Sequence record: PV469800.1
Strand: one strand, 5' to 3'
Length of the DNA stretch: 64,000 nucleotides
Origin: Escherichia phage HMD-P10
Shown here in pieces: positions 58,581 through 64,000 of the stretch. Position 1 is the stretch's first letter. Every line of letters begins with the position of its first letter. The notes beneath the pieces are model-generated. The model did no database searches, was not told where the DNA came from, and worked only from the letters and a program-made list of their open reading frames with translations. A program made the position numbers and the translations under genes.

Positions 58581-58753
58581 GGTGTAGGTGGGAATGTCGC
58601 CATTTCTCACAAGGCTACCACATCTGAAAAGAAAAGTCAACAGAAAAATTTGTAGCGGATTGAAAAATAATTCTTGATTGTAGTTCTGTTTTGTGGTAGT
58701 CGCGTGCACCCGTTTCATTACAGTTTTTTGCAAAAATATTTTTAAAATTTTTC

Positions 58754-58782
58754 TTGACTCTCTGACTATGGTTATTTAATAT
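58754..58782 (+). promoter_or_regulatory. sigma70-like promoter of cassette array
   Basis: TTGACT-17 nt-TAATAT, followed by stem-loop and conserved RBS. Confidence 0.5.
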
Positions 58783-58843
58783 TTGCATCAACAGGGGGGC
58801 GATGACCTCCCAACTAACTAACCTTAAACTAGGAGATTCAAAA

Positions 58844-59224
58844 ATGGCTTATCGTGCACCTAAATTCATCAACAAAGACAACTTTCGCAACGTACTGGAG
58901 AAGGCACTTGATGAAAAATTTAACGGTAAATTGATTGTTGTTCACGCATTCAATTTCAAGTATGATATTAACGGGAATAAAATCAACCATTACACGGCAA
59001 CCATGTTAGATGGTACACTATCAAGTGAAAAAGCCGTACTGAATGCACTTGCTGGACGTGGTAAAAACCTGATAAAATGCGATAAGAGACGTTATCAGGG
59101 CGGCGCATATGGTTACGATGATGCTGTTTACCATCTTGAAAATATGGGATATTCAGTGGAAAAAGCTGGAGTGTCTCAAATAATCGGCAGTGACGGCTAT
59201 GTGACAATTTTCAAAATTAACTGA
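58844..59224 (+). CDS. small early-type protein (cassette gene 1)
   Basis: Start at ATG 58844 behind conserved leader ACTAGGAGATTCAAAAATG; track start 58802 lies inside leader hairpin. Confidence 0.45.
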   Translation: MAYRAPKFINKDNFRNVLEKALDEKFNGKLIVVHAFNFKYDINGNKINHYTATMLDGTLSSEKAVLNALAGRGKNLIKCDKRRYQGGAYGYDDAVYHLENMGYSVEKAGVSQIIGSDGYVTIFKIN

Positions 59225-59322
59225 TAAAGTACTTTACAAGGGGCTTATAGTTCGATAAAGTAAGCCCCAGATAAAGAGCTTTATCACTCAATCCTAAATT
59301 GGAGATTCTAAAATGGCTATTA
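59224..59322. repeat. 99-bp perfect direct repeat (pair A, copy 1)
   Basis: Identical to 61463..61561; includes promoter-like TTTACA-17-TAAAGT, GGGGCTTA/TAAGCCCC hairpin, palindrome GATAAAGAGCTTTATC, RBS and first codons ATGGCTATTA. Confidence 0.85.
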
Positions 59323-59606
59323 TCAAAAACGTTGTAGTTCCTGCAAAAACTCGTGATGACGCTCGCATCATGGCGAAAAAGTTAGGTGGGAAAGTGATTG
59401 ACAACGGAAAACAATCTGCTGTAAGATGGGGCGTGAAGACTGATAAACAGTTGAAGTTAAAAAATTCACCAATAAACCTTTTTACATGTGTAAACACTAT
59501 CGGGAAGACAAATGTATACACGAAAAAGGCATATATCAGACGCGTAGCCATGACATCACCTATTCGCACAATGAGAAGTCATGCAAAGCTGAAAATTAAT
59601 CGTTAA
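59313..59606 (+). CDS. small basic protein (cassette gene 2)
   Basis: 97 aa; conserved leader TTGGAGATTCTAAAATG. Confidence 0.45.
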   Translation: MAIIKNVVVPAKTRDDARIMAKKLGGKVIDNGKQSAVRWGVKTDKQLKLKNSPINLFTCVNTIGKTNVYTKKAYIRRVAMTSPIRTMRSHAKLKINR

Positions 59607-59703
59607 AGTACTTTACAAGGGGCTTAAAAGCTGATATCTTAAGCCCCAGATAAAGAGCTTTACCACTAAATCAAGTCCTTAAACTAGGAGATTCAAAAAT
59701 GAA
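59604..59703. repeat. 100-bp perfect direct repeat (pair B, copy 1)
   Basis: Identical to 62261..62360. Confidence 0.85.
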
Positions 59704-60211
59704 AACTGTAGACGCTACCTTTGAAGTTGTAAAAGAAAAATTCACCATTGTTTACGAAGCTGTTAATTGCTACGAAGCAAGTCATAATCTTGATAATTGG
59801 GAGTTTACAGATGACCATCAAGGCGGCGTGGCTATTAAAAATCCCAACTGTCAGCGTAATGGATTTAAATATGCAATCCCTTTACATTACAGCCTTAAAC
59901 AGCTTTCAAGTGACTATGCAAAACAAGGCCGGGAAAATCCATCAAAAGAGGCTTACATCAGCTTACAGAAAGAACTAGAAAGAGATTTGGATGCTTCAGA
60001 GTATAACATTGCCGCTAAAGTTGTGGATGCCAACGGTAAAACGATTTTAGACAGTTTTTATATTGGTTATGCTTTCGATTGGTGCTACAGTGACGGCGAT
60101 GATTTAGATGACAGGCTAAAAGAGGAAGTGAACAACGCAGACGCAGAATCTGAAGTATTAGAACGCTTGGAAGCATTAAAAGATTCAGTGATGAATATCT
60201 TTAAGAACTAA
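59699..60211 (+). CDS. hypothetical protein (cassette gene 3)
   Basis: 170 aa; conserved leader. Confidence 0.45.
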   Translation: MKTVDATFEVVKEKFTIVYEAVNCYEASHNLDNWEFTDDHQGGVAIKNPNCQRNGFKYAIPLHYSLKQLSSDYAKQGRENPSKEAYISLQKELERDLDASEYNIAAKVVDANGKTILDSFYIGYAFDWCYSDGDDLDDRLKEEVNNADAESEVLERLEALKDSVMNIFKN

Positions 60212-60298
60212 ATAGATTTCTTTACACGGGGTTATCAAGCTGATAAGATAGCCCCAGATAAAGAGATTTATCAACTGTCCTAAACTGGAGATTCAAAA

Positions 60299-60595
60299 AT
60301 GAAACTATCAAATAAAGTCCGTGAAAATCTAAGCAAGTTGCTTAATAAAATTGATTTCATTGAAACATCAAGGAATAGTCATGATGTTATGGAATGGTTA
60401 CACGGAAAAATCAAAGGCCGTCGTGTAGTGATTTGCTTATGGAATAGTTGCAGGGAATATAAAAAACCTGTATTACAAGTCAATATCTATGATGATACTT
60501 TCAAAAGCCCTGTAAAGTCTAAAAGCGATTTATTAGAATCTTATGAGATAACTGTAAATGGCAAGGTATCACGTAAAGAGGAAGCACCATGTTAA
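60299..60595 (+). CDS. hypothetical protein (cassette gene 4)
   Basis: 98 aa; variant leader CTAAACTGGAGATTCAAAAATG. Confidence 0.45.
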   Translation: MKLSNKVRENLSKLLNKIDFIETSRNSHDVMEWLHGKIKGRRVVICLWNSCREYKKPVLQVNIYDDTFKSPVKSKSDLLESYEITVNGKVSRKEEAPC

Positions 60596-62360: not shown

Positions 62361-62898
62361 ATGCTTTCACGGTACTACTCAAGAAAACTTCATCAACTTA
62401 ATTAATAACGGTGATAAACCATCAGGCGCATGGAATTGTTCGGATATGGATGGTAATTTTTACGTTTATCCAGAAAATAAAATCTATGGCGACGATGAGG
62501 AAGAAATAATCTCTGAAGGCATTCAACAAGCTTTAGGCAATGCCACTATAACGGCAGCTTTTCAGATGAAAACTCAAAACATTGTTATCTTGGAACTTGA
62601 TATTCCAGAGGATGAGTTAAACGATGATTATTCTTGTGATAATATGTCTGGCGTGGCAAGTTTTACAGAGTATTTCGATATAAGCTGGATTAAAAAGGTT
62701 TACATCACTGAATTTAATGCTATGTTTTCGCCTTTTTGTCTCCCTTCACTGGATAACCCAAATTTGAACTATCTTGACGAGTCTCTGGAACTTCTCGCTA
62801 AAAGTGTTCAACAATCAGACAGTATTCAGGTTTTTTGTGACATCATGGATACACTAACAGGAAACATCATAGAAAGTGATTTGAAGAGCTTTTTATAA
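62356..62898 (+). CDS. hypothetical acidic protein (cassette gene 9)
   Basis: 180 aa; conserved leader. Confidence 0.45.
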   Translation: MKCFHGTTQENFINLINNGDKPSGAWNCSDMDGNFYVYPENKIYGDDEEEIISEGIQQALGNATITAAFQMKTQNIVILELDIPEDELNDDYSCDNMSGVASFTEYFDISWIKKVYITEFNAMFSPFCLPSLDNPNLNYLDESLELLAKSVQQSDSIQVFCDIMDTLTGNIIESDLKSFL

Positions 62899-62964
62899 TA
62901 ACCTATACAATCACCTTATAAATACTGATTAGCCCCTCACAGGGGCTTTTAGGAGGCCTAAATC

Positions 62965-63198
62965 ATGCTTACGACAGTTTATCTCATCCTTTCTATTTGT
63001 AATGGTCATTCATGTGATTTTAAAGGGCTTGAGGAGTTTACAGGAAGTAAAGAAAATGCCGTTCAGGTCTGTCAGATAGCAAGACAAGACTACCCCGCCA
63101 GTGATGATATACAATGTTATTTTAAGACAGAAGATGAAGAGGGTATCTATTTCGATAGTGTAGACGGGCAATATGAAATTATCATTGAAAAAGACTAG
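62965..63198 (+). CDS. hypothetical protein
   Basis: 77 aa; RBS AGGAGG; hydrophobic N-terminus. Confidence 0.35.
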   Translation: MLTTVYLILSICNGHSCDFKGLEEFTGSKENAVQVCQIARQDYPASDDIQCYFKTEDEEGIYFDSVDGQYEIIIEKD

Positions 63199-63224
63199 AC
63201 AAGCCTGATAAAAGTCTGTAAATT
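63196..63224 (+). promoter_or_regulatory. sigma70-like promoter of cassette
   Basis: TAGACA-17 nt-TAAATT, followed by GGGAGG-GATGA-CCTCCC stem-loop. Confidence 0.45.
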
Positions 63225-63286
63225 GTCAATCAACGGGAGGGATGACCTCCCAACTAAACAAAGTCCTTAAACTAGGAGATTCAAAA

Positions 63287-63628
63287 ATGGCTTATGTAAC
63301 CGTAATTACCAATAAAGAAGATTCATCTTGGTCAACTCAAGTAAGTGACAAGATGTCACCTATGCAGTGCCTAAAATACTTTGAGCAATGGAACAAAGGT
63401 GAGGAAACAAGCCCCTTTCAAGTAATGCAGATTATCCATACAGACAACGAAGGGAATAAAACTGTTTTGAATAGTGAGTACTATGCAACCAGATTCGAAA
63501 CGAGAAGTAAAGCAATGAAGCTCTTACGTGAATCCGGTTATTCTCATATTGCCGCGCTAATCTGGGATGACCTCCTAAAAAGTCAGCGTATCAGTTATGT
63601 AAAACCTGAAAAAATATTCATCAGTTAA
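63287..63628 (+). CDS. hypothetical protein (cassette gene 10)
   Basis: Start at ATG 63287 behind conserved leader; track start 63242 lies in hairpin. Confidence 0.45.
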   Translation: MAYVTVITNKEDSSWSTQVSDKMSPMQCLKYFEQWNKGEETSPFQVMQIIHTDNEGNKTVLNSEYYATRFETRSKAMKLLRESGYSHIAALIWDDLLKSQRISYVKPEKIFIS

Positions 63629-63757
63629 TCAACAACTTACAAAAAACTTTTAAAAAAGTGTTGACAATGCCCCTTGACATTGGTAACTTTGTTCGAGGGG
63701 GTTTATCTAAAAGGGATTAACTTAAAAGATTCTTTATAGATAAACTTAAAAAATTGC

Positions 63758-63786
63758 TTGCAATCAGATATCAAAACAAGTAAATT
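63758..63786 (+). promoter_or_regulatory. sigma70-like promoter of cassette
   Basis: TTGCAA-17 nt-TAAATT, followed by GGGAGG-GATAA-CCTCCC stem-loop. Confidence 0.45.
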
Positions 63787-63848
63787 ACTAATCAACGGGA
63801 GGGATAACCTCCCCACTAAGTAAAGTCCTTAAACTAGGAGATTCAAAA

Positions 63849-64000
63849 ATGAACAAATTTCAAGCTATCAATTACATCCGCTCAAATAGTGTTATGTCAA
63901 AGCCTGTTAAAGACACCTATGAATTTCGTTGCAATGGCGTACACTTTGCAACCATCACCAAATCAGAAAACGGGGCTTATTACGTTCATCGCCGTAATGT
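63849..64000 (+). CDS. hypothetical protein (cassette gene 11, 3'-truncated by window end)
   Basis: ATG 63849 behind conserved leader; ORF runs to window end. Confidence 0.4.
   Translation, partial: MNKFQAINYIRSNSVMSKPVKDTYEFRCNGVHFATITKSENGAYYVHRRN

Follow-up and report, generated by a model that had tools for sequence, protein, structure and literature searches.

The small-gene array of Escherichia phage HMD-P10 is probably (about 70%) built of portable cassettes of ~100 bp, each combining a promoter, a hairpin and an initiation region, which drive autonomous ORFan units and offer homology patches for recombination. The window analysed here comprises 64,000 nucleotides (PV469800.1) of this Felixounavirus genome (Felix O1-type phage, Ounavirinae). 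The array is a hyperplastic region that adjoins the right terminal repeat and contains 13 ORFs between 58.8 and 63.9 kb, and all features listed below lie on the + strand. An earlier note on this DNA had described one kind of cassette, but two classes had been merged: we found type A (n = 5), type B (n = 5) and one initiation region alone, so the promoter with a short GC hairpin that was said to precede most of these genes precedes just 5 of 11. Its observation was partly confirmed and its interpretation partly supported. The cassettes appear to give each small gene its own expression and to act as recombination points for gene gain and loss.

58354-58404, +: canonical intrinsic terminator (Felix O1 't13'; terminator scan), ends the upstream operon before the array
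58754-58846, +: type A cassette, putative first array promoter; -35 TTGACT 58754-59, -10 TAATAT 58777-82, hairpin 58794-58811, initiation region 58822-58846
58844-59224, +: gene 2, 126 aa, phrog_4495
59219-59315, +: type B cassette; -35 TTTACA 59233-38, -10 TAAAGT 59256-61, two-helix hairpin ~59225-59283, predicted start ~59269, initiation region 59291-59315; covariance-model match 91.2 bits, fold -31.9 kcal/mol, z -3.1
59313-59606, +: gene 3, 97 aa, very basic (pI 11.2)
59598-59701, +: type B cassette; -35 59612-17, -10 TATCTT 59635-40 (TGn extended), hairpin, initiation region 59677-59701
59699-60211, +: gene 4, 170 aa, acidic
60207-60301, +: type B variant whose hairpin (13 + 9 bp) pairs perfectly; -35 60221-26, -10 TAAGAT 60244-49, initiation region 60277-60301; covariance-model match 76 bits, fold -28.6 kcal/mol, z -4.67
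60299-60921, +: genes 5 (60299-60595, 98 aa) and 6 (60589-60921, 110 aa), stop and start overlapping, no cassette between
60918-61014, +: type A cassette; -35 TTGATT 60918-23, -10 TAAATT 60941-46, predicted start ~60954, hairpin GGGGAGGG-AATGA-CCTTCCCC 60957-60977, initiation region 60990-61014
61012-61170, +: gene 7, 52 aa, 25-nt initiation-region direct repeats on both flanks
61172-61196, +: initiation region alone (motif search), without promoter or hairpin, fronts gene 8
61194-61466, +: gene 8, 90 aa
61458-61554, +: type B cassette, exact 99-bp repeat of 59224-59322
61552-61956, +: gene 9, 134 aa
61966-62062, +: type A cassette, repeat of 60916-61014
62060-62260, +: gene 10, 66 aa
62255-62358, +: type B cassette, exact 101-bp repeat of 59604-59704
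62356-62898, +: gene 11, 180 aa, acidic, predicted ADP-ribosyltransferase fold (N-terminal CFHGT)
62931-62967, +: non-cassette leader of gene 12; terminator-like hairpin GCCCCT-CAC-AGGGGC, then TTTT and an AGGAGG SD
62965-63198, +: gene 12, 77 aa, acidic
63196-63289, +: type A cassette; -35 TAGACA 63196-201, -10 TAAATT 63219-24, hairpin 63235-63251, initiation region 63265-63289
63287-63628, +: gene 13, 113 aa
63758-63851, +: type A cassette; -35 TTGCAA, -10 TAAATT 63781-86, hairpin 63797-63814, initiation region 63827-63851
63849-64000, +: gene 14, cut by the window end

The type B cassettes (ATGs 59313, 59699, 60299, 61552 and 62356) carry a TTTACA-N17-TAnnnT promoter signature wholly enclosed by a 20-bp two-helix interrupted RNA hairpin, which the earlier note overlooked and which is the element that covaries. 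Among 45 distinct B cassettes, collected with a search pattern that prescribed the -35 TTTACA and the 17-nt spacer, the -10 retained T1 (98%), A2 (98%) and T6 (96%) with positions 3-5 near random, and TGn was present in 27; TTTACA was nearly invariant in alignment A2 too. Type B sequences folded at -25 to -32 kcal/mol (z -3.1 to -4.7). Results from 67 distinct copies in four genera, aligned by fitting to the covariance model, showed that 96.5% of cells pair, vs 52-56% with the partner slid, that compensatory changes occur at 7 of the 20 pairs (43 cells), and that all five covariation measures beat 500 of 500 shuffles; a MAFFT-only alignment gave the same direction. This covariation strongly supports the B hairpin. 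G-U pairs were abundant, dominating two positions, and the covariance model scored 60-94 bits on the + strand vs 20-39 bits on the - strand, which points to a structure of sense-strand RNA.

The B hairpin consists of a lower helix of 11-12 bp and an upper helix of 9 bp, separated by a 3x3 internal loop and capped by a loop of 11-13 nt. It spans about two helical turns and occupies the precise junction of two cistrons, the stop codon of the upstream one falling at its foot. Because the cassette's own start, a prediction set like all start sites here solely from the distance to the -10, falls at the 3' base of the upper stem, the hairpin would form only in read-through RNA from the upstream gene and so most likely acts on that transcript; it might attenuate it, mark it for processing or stabilise its 3' end. 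From the embedded promoter, transcription of the next gene would then begin anew with almost the same 5' end. A possible reading, though not the one we favour, makes the hairpin a processing signal of the RNase III type, comparable to those between cistrons in the T7 early region. Polycistronic read-through RNA would then be cleaved by the host enzyme within the 3x3 internal loop, leaving the upstream mRNA with a protective 3' hairpin and the downstream one with a 5' end near the promoter-initiated one. The geometry fits the architecture of T7 RNase III sites, and the intercistronic position, the G-U-rich sense-strand RNA and the lack of a U-tract are also in keeping with it. However, no family matching the B hairpin was found in Rfam, and the stem-loops of the T4-type promoter-early stem-loop (PeSL) cassettes, the closest analogue, lower downstream expression with RNase III not invoked (PMC2839356). 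RNase III processing would refine the role of the hairpin and is compatible with the cassette model.

The type A cassettes (ATGs 58844, 61012, 62060, 63287 and 63849) have a TTGACA-like -35, a 17-nt spacer, a -10 TAAATT and then, at ~+4, a 6-8 bp G-run/C-run hairpin. Over 68 A cassettes the -35 profile was T.99 T.78 G.94 A.74 C.62 A.63, with TAAATT as the -10. An independent promoter scan recovered 7 of the 10 cassette promoter sites (A and B), and a generic scan over the region gave 32 sites vs 19.4 +/- 4.8 in shuffles, a modest excess. An AT-rich tract lies upstream of the first cassette (58754-58846), and in many relatives GGGC-AAGCAA-GCCC replaces the hairpin at this position. At gene 13, a 128-aa ORF from 63242 was rejected as an artefact, its ATG sitting within the hairpin loop. 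Pairing was seen in 92% of cells across 44 distinct A hairpins; the covarying short GC stem and constant 5-nt loop described earlier did not hold up, as just one cell had a double change, no measure exceeded shuffles, the partner slid one column paired equally well, and six loop sequences occurred (GATGA, AATGA, GATAA, AATAA, AACAA and ATTAA). The type A hairpin is conserved, but this conservation might reflect sequence instead of structure.

As the A hairpin begins ~3 nt past the predicted start, class A mRNA would start with a 5'-terminal stem-loop, and such stem-loops protect E. coli mRNAs from decay. The hairpins of the array may be attenuators, RNase III sites or mRNA stabilisers. It is unlikely that they are ordinary factor-independent terminators making each gene strictly monocistronic (promoter, gene, terminator), even though the ASO1B GenBank record labels A hairpins 'rho-independent terminator predicted by WebGeSTer', beside predicted promoters, and a PeSL stem-loop cloned between promoter and lacZ cut expression about as much as rrnB T1 (PMC2839356). 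In a terminator scan of 57500-64000 no U-tract followed either hairpin type, which makes classical termination unlikely, and the sole terminator-like site of that interval in the consensus scan was 58354, outside the array. Moreover, an A hairpin, being downstream of its own promoter, would stop its own transcript before the gene, and canonical terminators occur elsewhere in the genome, such as t13, listed in Felix O1 with a sequence identical to 58354-58404 (PMC3185647).

The ~25-nt initiation region reported earlier on at least 11 small ORFs was confirmed and is local: GGAGATTCWAAAATG occurred in 11 copies (58832-63851) vs 0.45 expected (<=2 mismatches, whole 64 kb), with a single weak extra match outside the array at 56020, and the full 25-nt CCTTAAACTAGGAGATTCAAAAATG was present in eight copies. 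It opens 11 of the 13 ORFs, the exceptions being the ORF at 60589, which has an overlapping start, and that at 62965, whose AGGAGG leader is kept in all relatives as a 63-67 nt spacer. The consensus CCUUAAACUAGGAGAUUCAAAAAUG combines an AGGAG SD with an 8-nt A/U-rich spacer; every copy contains GGAG, and the AGG of the SD can in every case pair with a CCU upstream. This consensus differs genus by genus, and Erwinia phages carry a homologous, genus-specific version. With a host sigma70-type promoter, an RNA hairpin and this near-identical translation initiation region in each cassette, every ORFan would be an autonomous, strongly translated unit, transcribed by unmodified host RNA polymerase.

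We consider it improbable that the initiation region, with or without its weak UCCU/AGGA stem, is kept identical by a phage-encoded factor recognising it. Such a factor might repress translation or cut at the SD as an endoribonuclease, in the manner of T4 RegA or RegB, and would shut off the array genes jointly after the early phase. Conservation over 25 nt, far beyond SD needs, the exclusivity to array genes within 64 kb, the GGAG in all copies, the Erwinia version and the constant CCU-AGG pairing would agree with it, but Bas63, a carefully annotated relative, has no annotated RegA- or RegB-like product, concerted evolution via recombination accounts for the identity without any factor, and selection for strong translation could by itself account for much of the sequence. 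Lower still we rate the chance that a dimeric repressor binds the B arms (TAAAGTACTTTA over the -35 and GATAAAGAGCTTTATC at +1 to +17) as DNA operators, which would make their mutual complementarity a by-product. Each arm of the common variant is palindromic, at classical operator positions, and relatives annotate one 'putative transcriptional regulator'; however, the upstream arm of the gene-5 variant, ATAGATTTCTTTA, is not palindromic yet is fully complementary to the downstream arm over 13 bp through a compensatory G-C to U-A exchange (11 of 67 copies), and the two G-U-dominated positions fit RNA, not duplex-DNA symmetry.

Cassettes were found across Ounavirinae, and matches were restricted to the array in 13 of 13 genomes compared. 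Their conservation spans four genera, where 4-fold sites are down to 37-53% identity. Orthologous leaders were 88-93% identical within the genus vs 74-87% for 4-fold sites of flanking genes, 83% vs 53% for SUSP2 and 82% vs 48% for Moogle, only leaders >70% identical being counted, which biases the values upward for distant genera. These results show that the leaders are under purifying selection, conserved beyond neighbouring 4-fold sites. The window holds three exact repeat pairs of 99-101 bp, one of them the 99-bp pair of type A (60916-61014 vs 61964-62062), whereas orthologous leaders of the closest phages are just 81-98% identical; with exact intragenomic repeats and a genus-specific consensus, the cassettes evolve in concert. 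Neutral repeats from recent duplication or selfish spread, with genes expressed by upstream read-through, would match these exact repeats and the modest promoter-scan excess but are very improbable, given retention in four genera despite such 4-fold divergence, a variable -10 that keeps exactly T1, A2 and T6, a B hairpin maintained through compensatory changes, and a canonical terminator (58354-58404) cutting the array off from upstream transcription.

Of 255 related records, 8 covered at least 80% of the array; for a core region of the same size the figure was 179 of 258. SUT_S820 lacks genes 7-9, Felix O1 lacks genes 10-12 and gene 15 is present or absent among relatives, all with A..A cassettes at the indel ends, and GEP101 lacks gene 3 between B..B cassettes. 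Gene 7 is absent from GEP101, Felix O1, SUSP2 and Moogle, loss of gene 18 fuses the first leader to gene 2, and relatives have 1-3 further cassette-fronted genes beyond gene 14. Most gene indels between phages have cassettes as boundaries, the loss of gene 5 in GEP101 being one indel without; selection for intact expression could alone make surviving indels look cassette-bounded. Since gene order is largely collinear among Felixounavirus, Suspvirus and Mooglevirus, variation is mainly insertion/deletion, and the gene shuffling that the earlier note associated with such cassettes stands as cassette-bounded gain and loss, not as change of order. With 99-101 bp of near-identical sequence the cassettes would double as homology patches, and recombination between them could delete, insert and homogenise gene cassettes.

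The products are mutually unrelated, as had been claimed, each ORF forming its own family in all-against-all BLASTP. Searches of Pfam and PHROGs likewise found no recognisable domains in the array products; the clearly predicted ADP-ribosyltransferase fold of gene 11 departs from that picture and is the one supporting case for the idea of host-takeover effectors.

Sigma70-like promoter activity and early timing are suggested by sequence signatures and by a crude RT-PCR table of Felix O1, in which array ORFs 16, 20, 21 and 22 are at maximum at 5 min and ORFs 14, 17, 19 and 23 of the same array peak at 25 min, the table being noisy, with capsid genes showing at 5 min (PMC3185647). In RB49/phi1, both the promoters and the stem-loops of PeSL cassettes have been shown to be active (PMC2839356). 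Of the reading proposed earlier, a single cassette class and A-stem covariation do not hold, but the likeness to PeSL does: each cassette packs a promoter signature of the sigma70 type, a GC stem-loop, the SD and the ATG into ~100 bp upstream of ORFans in a hyperplastic region, and same-type cassettes bound gene indels. The cassettes are best read as an analogue of T4-type PeSL, in architecture and in comparative genomics.

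The segment 58300-64000 was compared with GenBank phages by megablast, which returned 255 records at ~90% identity, all of Felix O1-type phages. By taxon they are Ounavirinae, comprising Felixounavirus of E. coli, Salmonella and Shigella as well as Citrobacter Mooglevirus. The genes of the window run from structural genes through replication, nrd and rII genes to the small-gene region (58.8-63.9 kb, hereafter the array), which corresponds to genes 14-23 in Felix O1. In the record of the related phage ZX4221, the first 591 nt are identical to the last 591 nt, forming an exact direct terminal repeat whose right copy lies ~500 bp past the last array gene, in a 1.6-kb gene-free gap between the array end and convergent minus-strand genes. 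The array is therefore the right-terminal gene block of virion DNA. The position of the terminal repeat was not evident at the start of the UAB_Phi87 record and was shown by that of ZX4221; the size reported for UAB_Phi87 (608 bp) is similar. Two features border the array on its upstream side.

57539-58324: macrodomain gene, upstream of the array
58354-58404: canonical terminator (Felix O1 't13'), between the macrodomain gene and the array

Eleven copies of GGAGATTCWAAAATG (up to two mismatches allowed) were found at 58832-63851, plus one weak match at 56020, against 0.45 expected in 64 kb, and eight of the 11 contain the full-length CCTTAAACTAGGAGATTCAAAAATG. This shared ~25-nt SD/ATG segment, the initiation region, is used by 11 of the 13 array ORFs, the exceptions being those at 60589 and 62965. 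Each array ORF forms a BLASTP family of its own. These results confirmed two claims of an earlier note on this DNA, made from the sequence alone, namely that the small genes share a local initiation region and that they are unrelated to each other. The consensus of the initiation region differs by genus, being GGAGATTC in Felixounavirus, GGAGAATC in Moogle and AACCCTTAMAAAGGAATCAAAAYCATG in Erwinia phage Fifi318, and it loosely resembles the T7 gene 10 leader (UUAACUUUAAGAAGGAGAU). A conserved UCCU 5' of the SD is complementary to the AGGA of the SD (4 bp, 6-nt loop, e.g. 60988-61003), and the initiation region of the Erwinia phage retains SD complementarity (CCUU...AAGG). The UCCU/AGGA pairing may mask the SD as a weak stem, or the element may serve for recognition.

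The same note had proposed one cassette type in front of each gene. The leaders proved to be of two kinds, five of type A and five of type B, and gene 8 has the initiation region alone.

Leaders of the array genes (positions are those of the ATG)
58844, 61012, 62060, 63287, 63849: type A; -35 TTGACT, TTGATT, TAGACA or TTGCAA, 17-nt spacer, -10 TAAATT or TAATAT; 3' of the -10, ten nt with ATCAAC at their end and next a hairpin (e.g. GGGGAGGG-AATGA-CCTTCCCC)
59313, 59699, 60299, 61552, 62356: type B; TTTACA, 17-nt spacer, TAnnnT; arms GGGGCTTAT...GTAAGCCCC astride the -10, then AGATAAAGAGCTTTAYC
61194: gene 8; initiation region without promoter or hairpin

Promoter signatures were derived from distinct cassette copies, taken from the 13 genomes under comparison, from phage Bas63 and from 29 loci in IMG/VR. 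In 45 distinct type B cassettes, the -10 element is conserved at T1 (98%), A2 (98%) and T6 (96%), while positions 3-5 are free (TAAAGT, TATCTT, TAAGAT, TAGTAT, TACAGT, TATGAT and others), and an extended TGn is present in 27. The -35 TTTACA and the 17-nt spacer of type B were preset by the collection pattern, and TTTACA was near-invariant also in an independent alignment (A2). The 68 type A cassettes have a TTGACA-like -35 profile, with TAAATT as the -10 in 53. The spacer measures 17 nt in all ten window cassettes, seven of which were picked independently by a generic consensus promoter scan. The -35 and -10 elements thus have the information profile expected of sigma70 promoters amid drifting sequence, from which we infer promoter activity. 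An AT-rich tract 5' of the -35, judged by eye in a background of 62% AT, appears strong at 58731-58753, 61955-61965 and 63745-63757 and moderate elsewhere, including class B. Intergenic spacers are 85-107 nt in all genomes compared, and the cassettes are confined to the array, with none elsewhere in the 64 kb. Fifi318 carries an extra variant (12120-12210, 12420-12510) with a -10 TAAAAT in the loop of a GAGGGG/CCCCTC hairpin, between TTGACA and ATCAAC, so that hairpin-on-promoter designs are diverse in the subfamily.

As read-through RNA, the type B leader folds into a lower helix of 11-12 bp, UGAUAAAGU-A-CUUUA / UAAAG-A-GCUUUAUCA, above which follow a 3x3 internal loop, a 9-bp GC helix and a loop of 11-13 nt (-25 to -32 kcal/mol, z -3.1 to -4.7). 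The -35 lies within the lower helix, and the GC stem covers the spacer and the -10, the latter being placed in the loop and the upper 3' arm. The start is predicted at the base of the upper stem (e.g. A at 59269), so that transcripts from the B promoter would not contain the hairpin. With a covariance model of B, 14 genomes from four genera yielded 71 plus-strand copies scoring 60-94 bits. The window contains exactly five of these copies, and nothing reached E 0.01 in the rest of the 64 kb. Among 67 distinct copies in the model-guided alignment, 96.5% of cells pair, compared with 52-56% when the partner is slid. Compensatory changes occur in 7 of 20 pairs (43 cells), and five of five measures exceeded 500 of 500 shuffles. 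A plain MAFFT alignment gave the same direction, with 86.8% paired versus ~51%. At two positions most pairs are G-U, and reverse-strand scores are no higher than 20-39 bits, which argues for an RNA structure of the sense strand. Fifi318 has its own version of the B stem (GGTGTTTA/TAAGCACC), and an Rfam search at a permissive threshold returned only a chance miRNA match. The number of copies, genomes and covarying pairs makes the class B hairpin a new structured RNA motif with good support, a newly recognised covarying hairpin that embeds a promoter.

We favour the reading that the cassette hairpins act on RNA, with the type B hairpin possibly serving as an insulating or processing element on the upstream transcript. 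Classical termination by these hairpins is unlikely because the sequence on their 3' side, ACUAAG... in A and CACUMAAUCC in B, contains no U-tract; a terminator scan likewise found no terminator-like site inside the array, its sole site being 58354-58404. Integron-like recombination at folded attC sites was rejected given the RNA-type pairing, the strand-asymmetric covariance-model scores and the lack of an integrase in the annotation of Bas63, a related phage with 161 features. The reading of the B arms as two operators was rejected mainly on account of the gene-5 variant, in which the upstream arm is no longer palindromic yet pairs perfectly with the downstream arm over 13 bp.

The type A hairpin has a stem of 6-8 bp, located 10-11 nt past the -10; folding energies of -7 to -15.6 kcal/mol were obtained for 58 of 60 variants. 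MAFFT alignment of 42 A variants left G-run and C-run indels out of register and gave no consensus structure; the covariance model was built from same-length variants. It detected 59 copies, on the plus strand only and in arrays only, four of them in the window. The claim that the stem covaries while the 5-nt loop is kept was not borne out for this hairpin: 92% of cells pair, a single cell shows a double change, no measure exceeded the shuffles, and sliding by one column pairs equally well. The covariance-model check proposed for the leader hairpins thus came out in favour of B but not of A. Some leaders, namely that of the first promoter in many genomes and some in Moogle, have another hairpin in its place, GGGC-AAGCAA-GCCC, which is the best hint that structure is under selection in A. 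A longer lower stem (UUACU/AGUAA) is seen in some A copies, inconsistently, and is absent, e.g., in Felix O1. The type A hairpin would form a 5'-terminal stem-loop on its own mRNA; such stem-loops are known to stabilise mRNA.

The loop of the A hairpin often holds an ATG (GGGAGG-GATGA-CCTCCC), in frame with the true start in two window genes (58802-58846, 63242-63289). These in-frame ATGs produce spurious N-terminal extensions, seen as the 140-aa and 128-aa ORFs of the mechanical ORF list, and the Felix O1 RefSeq record annotates the start of ORF19 at a loop ATG (L003 position 3484). A conserved upstream ORF in the A loop (ATG ACC TTC CCC ACT AAG TAA) was considered and rejected, with many variants reading ATAA or ACAA without an ATG and the frame varying.

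Single-cassette blastn found A in 246 phage records and B in 288, the latter including Suspvirus, Mooglevirus and Erwinia Kolesnikvirus, and the exact initiation region was found in IMG/VR on Felix-sized contigs only. Orthologous leaders, counting only those >70% identical, were more conserved than 4-fold sites of the flanking genes (83% versus 53% in SUSP2, 82% versus 48% in Moogle, and 88-93% versus 74-87% within the genus). Within the window, three pairs of leaders are exact direct repeats (59224-59322 and 61463-61561; 59604-59704 and 62261-62361; 60916-61014 and 61964-62062). These 99-101 bp repeats span from the stop codon to just past the ATG, while the counterpart orthologous leaders in the closest phages are only 81-98% identical. 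These results indicate that the cassette system is real and under selection, and that concerted evolution is clear.

Array gene content is variable among relatives. At least 80% array coverage was found in only 8 of 255 related records, whereas an equally long core region was covered to this extent in 179 of 258. Of the seven indels examined, six have cassettes of one type, or the shared initiation region, at their boundaries.

Indels in the array
SUT_S820 without genes 7-9: between two A cassettes
Felix O1 without genes 10-12: between two A cassettes
GEP101 without gene 3: between two B cassettes
Gene 15, variably present: A cassettes on both sides
Gene 7: flanking 25-nt initiation-region repeats
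Gene 18 lost: first leader joined to gene 2
Gene 5 lost in GEP101 (exception): not cassette-bounded

Gene shuffling at such cassettes, as suggested by the earlier note, is supported as far as gain and loss at cassette boundaries is concerned, but gene order is mostly kept.

Searches with the array products gave nothing above threshold in Pfam and only 'unknown function' in PHROGs, in agreement with the view that they have no recognisable domains. Gene 11 (62356-62898) departs from it, since its predicted structure has the core fold of ADP-ribosyltransferases. Among residues that may correspond to the catalytic H-Y-E or R-S-E set, H5 hardly varies over 16 homologues, and Y36, Y38 and E80 do not vary at all. 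The array contains a previously unannotated ADP-ribosyltransferase-fold protein beside a macrodomain gene, which is a lead for host-takeover biology.

The non-coding stretch 58325-58843 (520 bp) contains the box CATTTYMRNNNTGTGCAGRT four times at 58399-58575 (0.21 expected), unique to this spot in the 64 kb. It is near-invariant even in Moogle and SUSP2, whose 4-fold sites are only ~50% identical, except for ~65 nt (roughly 58577-58645) that occur as two unrelated alleles, GGTGGGTG...CACAAGGCT or the C-rich TTTTTATAGA...CCCTCTCCCC. This stretch lies just upstream of the first array promoter and might bind a protein at an array of sites, act as an origin or encode a small RNA. Gene 14 is preceded by a spacer of ~220 nt in every Felixounavirus compared and of ~200 nt in Suspvirus and Mooglevirus, against the usual ~90; at 63629-63757 it contains two TTGACA hexamers and a hairpin, CCCCTTGA...TCGAGGGG (63670-63700), followed by GTTTATCT; the hairpin may be a terminator-like element or a small RNA. 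The leader of gene 12 (62931-62967), the sole non-cassette intergenic leader, has a hairpin resembling a terminator, GCCCCT-CAC-AGGGGC plus TTTT, with an AGGAGG SD immediately after it, and this spacer is 63-67 nt across all relatives.

Parts of the cassettes have been recorded before. In a literature text search, their sequences appeared only in the Felix O1 genome paper (Whichard et al. 2010, PMC3185647), which lists 57-bp and 39-bp direct repeats between genes 15/16, 19/20, 18/19 and 20/21. The longer one (CTTTACATGGGGCTTAAAAG...AGCCCCAGATAAAGAGCTTTACCACT) is cassette B, and the shorter one (TTGACACTGGTTTTTAGATAGATTAAATTACACATCAAC) is the promoter of cassette A. That paper left the repeats uninterpreted and declared promoters around terminators and temporal regulation unknown; the cassette, its hairpins, the shared initiation region and a role in recombination were not recognised there. 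Its RT-PCR table has ORFs 16, 20, 21 and 22 maximal at 5 min and ORFs 14, 17, 19 and 23 at 25 min. In GenBank MZ726792, a predicted promoter and a 'terminator' are marked at some of the A cassettes. Our literature search found no RNA-seq study of Felix O1-type phages and no PeSL (promoter-early stem-loop element) outside T4-like phages.

Taken together, the dual-use signal of class B, class A and the common initiation region may constitute an integrase-free, homology-driven platform for gene capture, a joint reading to which we give a probability of about one in four. One 60-nt B sequence would then be a sigma70 promoter as DNA and a covarying processing or insulating hairpin as read-through RNA, a dual-use element that would be described nowhere else, and each gene would yield primary and processed mRNAs with an identical leader. 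Concerted evolution would maintain the platform across the subfamily Ounavirinae, with early effectors such as the ADP-ribosyltransferase as cargo. Felix O1-type phages are classic Salmonella typing phages and widely used candidates for biocontrol and therapy. Should the cassettes function in the proposed way, they would be the early promoters of these phages and would explain the expression of ~15 ORFans, and PeSL-style modular gene exchange would not be peculiar to T4-like phages, being a convergent or very old solution in large virulent phages. For phage engineering, the cassettes would mark safe insertion sites with built-in expression signals. From the 99-101 bp repeats, particular deletions (1048, 2239 and 2657 bp) are predicted, and such variants might appear when the phages are produced.

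Several known systems resemble the array in part. Integron attC cassettes and lambdoid morons likewise comprise unrelated small genes with modular gain and loss, the separators there being imperfect inverted repeats or the gene's own promoter and terminator. In contrast to integrons, each cassette here has a promoter of its own, and the abundance of G-U pairs in the hairpin speaks for RNA and not for folded ssDNA. Morons have no conserved homology on their flanks. In Bacillus phage SPO1 (host-takeover module) and in T4 and T5 (early small-gene clusters), many small ORFans lie near a terminus and have strong host-type early promoters. The array shares with them terminus-adjacent small ORFans, multiple host-type promoters and unusually strong ribosome-binding sites, early timing being weakly documented here. 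To our knowledge, the SPO1, T4 and T5 modules have not been described as near-identical ~100-bp cassettes with embedded hairpins. The RNase III sites of T7 are intercistronic two-helix hairpins with an internal loop and no U-tract in the early polycistronic RNA made by host RNA polymerase. Class B is like them in geometry, with ~20 bp in two helices plus an internal loop between cistrons, cleavage being hypothetical; its hairpin contains a promoter, whereas the T7 sites have none.

The closest parallel is the PeSL of the T4-like phages RB49/phi1, PST/T4 and nt-1/KVP40 (Arbiol et al. 2010, PMC2839356; Comeau et al. 2014, PMC4122927). A PeSL consists of a strong sigma70-like promoter and a GC stem-loop in one of five positions, followed by SD and ATG (PMC2839356; PMC4122927). 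PeSLs lie upstream of ORFans in hyperplastic regions and mediate indels, and their promoter and attenuator activity was experimentally shown (PMC2839356). Mini-circle formation is a further trait of PeSLs. Judged at the sequence level, the cassettes have the PeSL features: a composite of ~100 bp with a sigma70-like promoter, a poly-G/poly-C stem-loop, SD and ATG and, by eye, a possible AT-rich tract, clustered in hyperplastic regions before ORFans, with motif-bounded indels between close relatives. The PeSL stem-loop lies between or over the -35/-10 or just past the -10, positions matched by B (spacer and -10) and A (after the -10). On these features we read the array as a PeSL-like cassette system of Felix O1-type phages. 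The likeness to T4-type PeSLs drawn in the earlier note therefore holds for promoter, stem-loop, SD/ATG, hyperplastic ORFan setting and bounded indels. The phages here belong to the Ounavirinae and homology is not apparent, the comparison being one of architecture; we therefore treat the cassettes as a PeSL analogue rather than a homologue. PeSLs form a loose continuum, whereas the Ounavirinae cassettes fall into two sharply defined, alternating classes that share one 25-nt initiation region and occur as exact 99-101 bp copies within a genome. Class B goes beyond the PeSL in having a second, lower helix, which places the whole promoter within a covarying hairpin of 20 bp.
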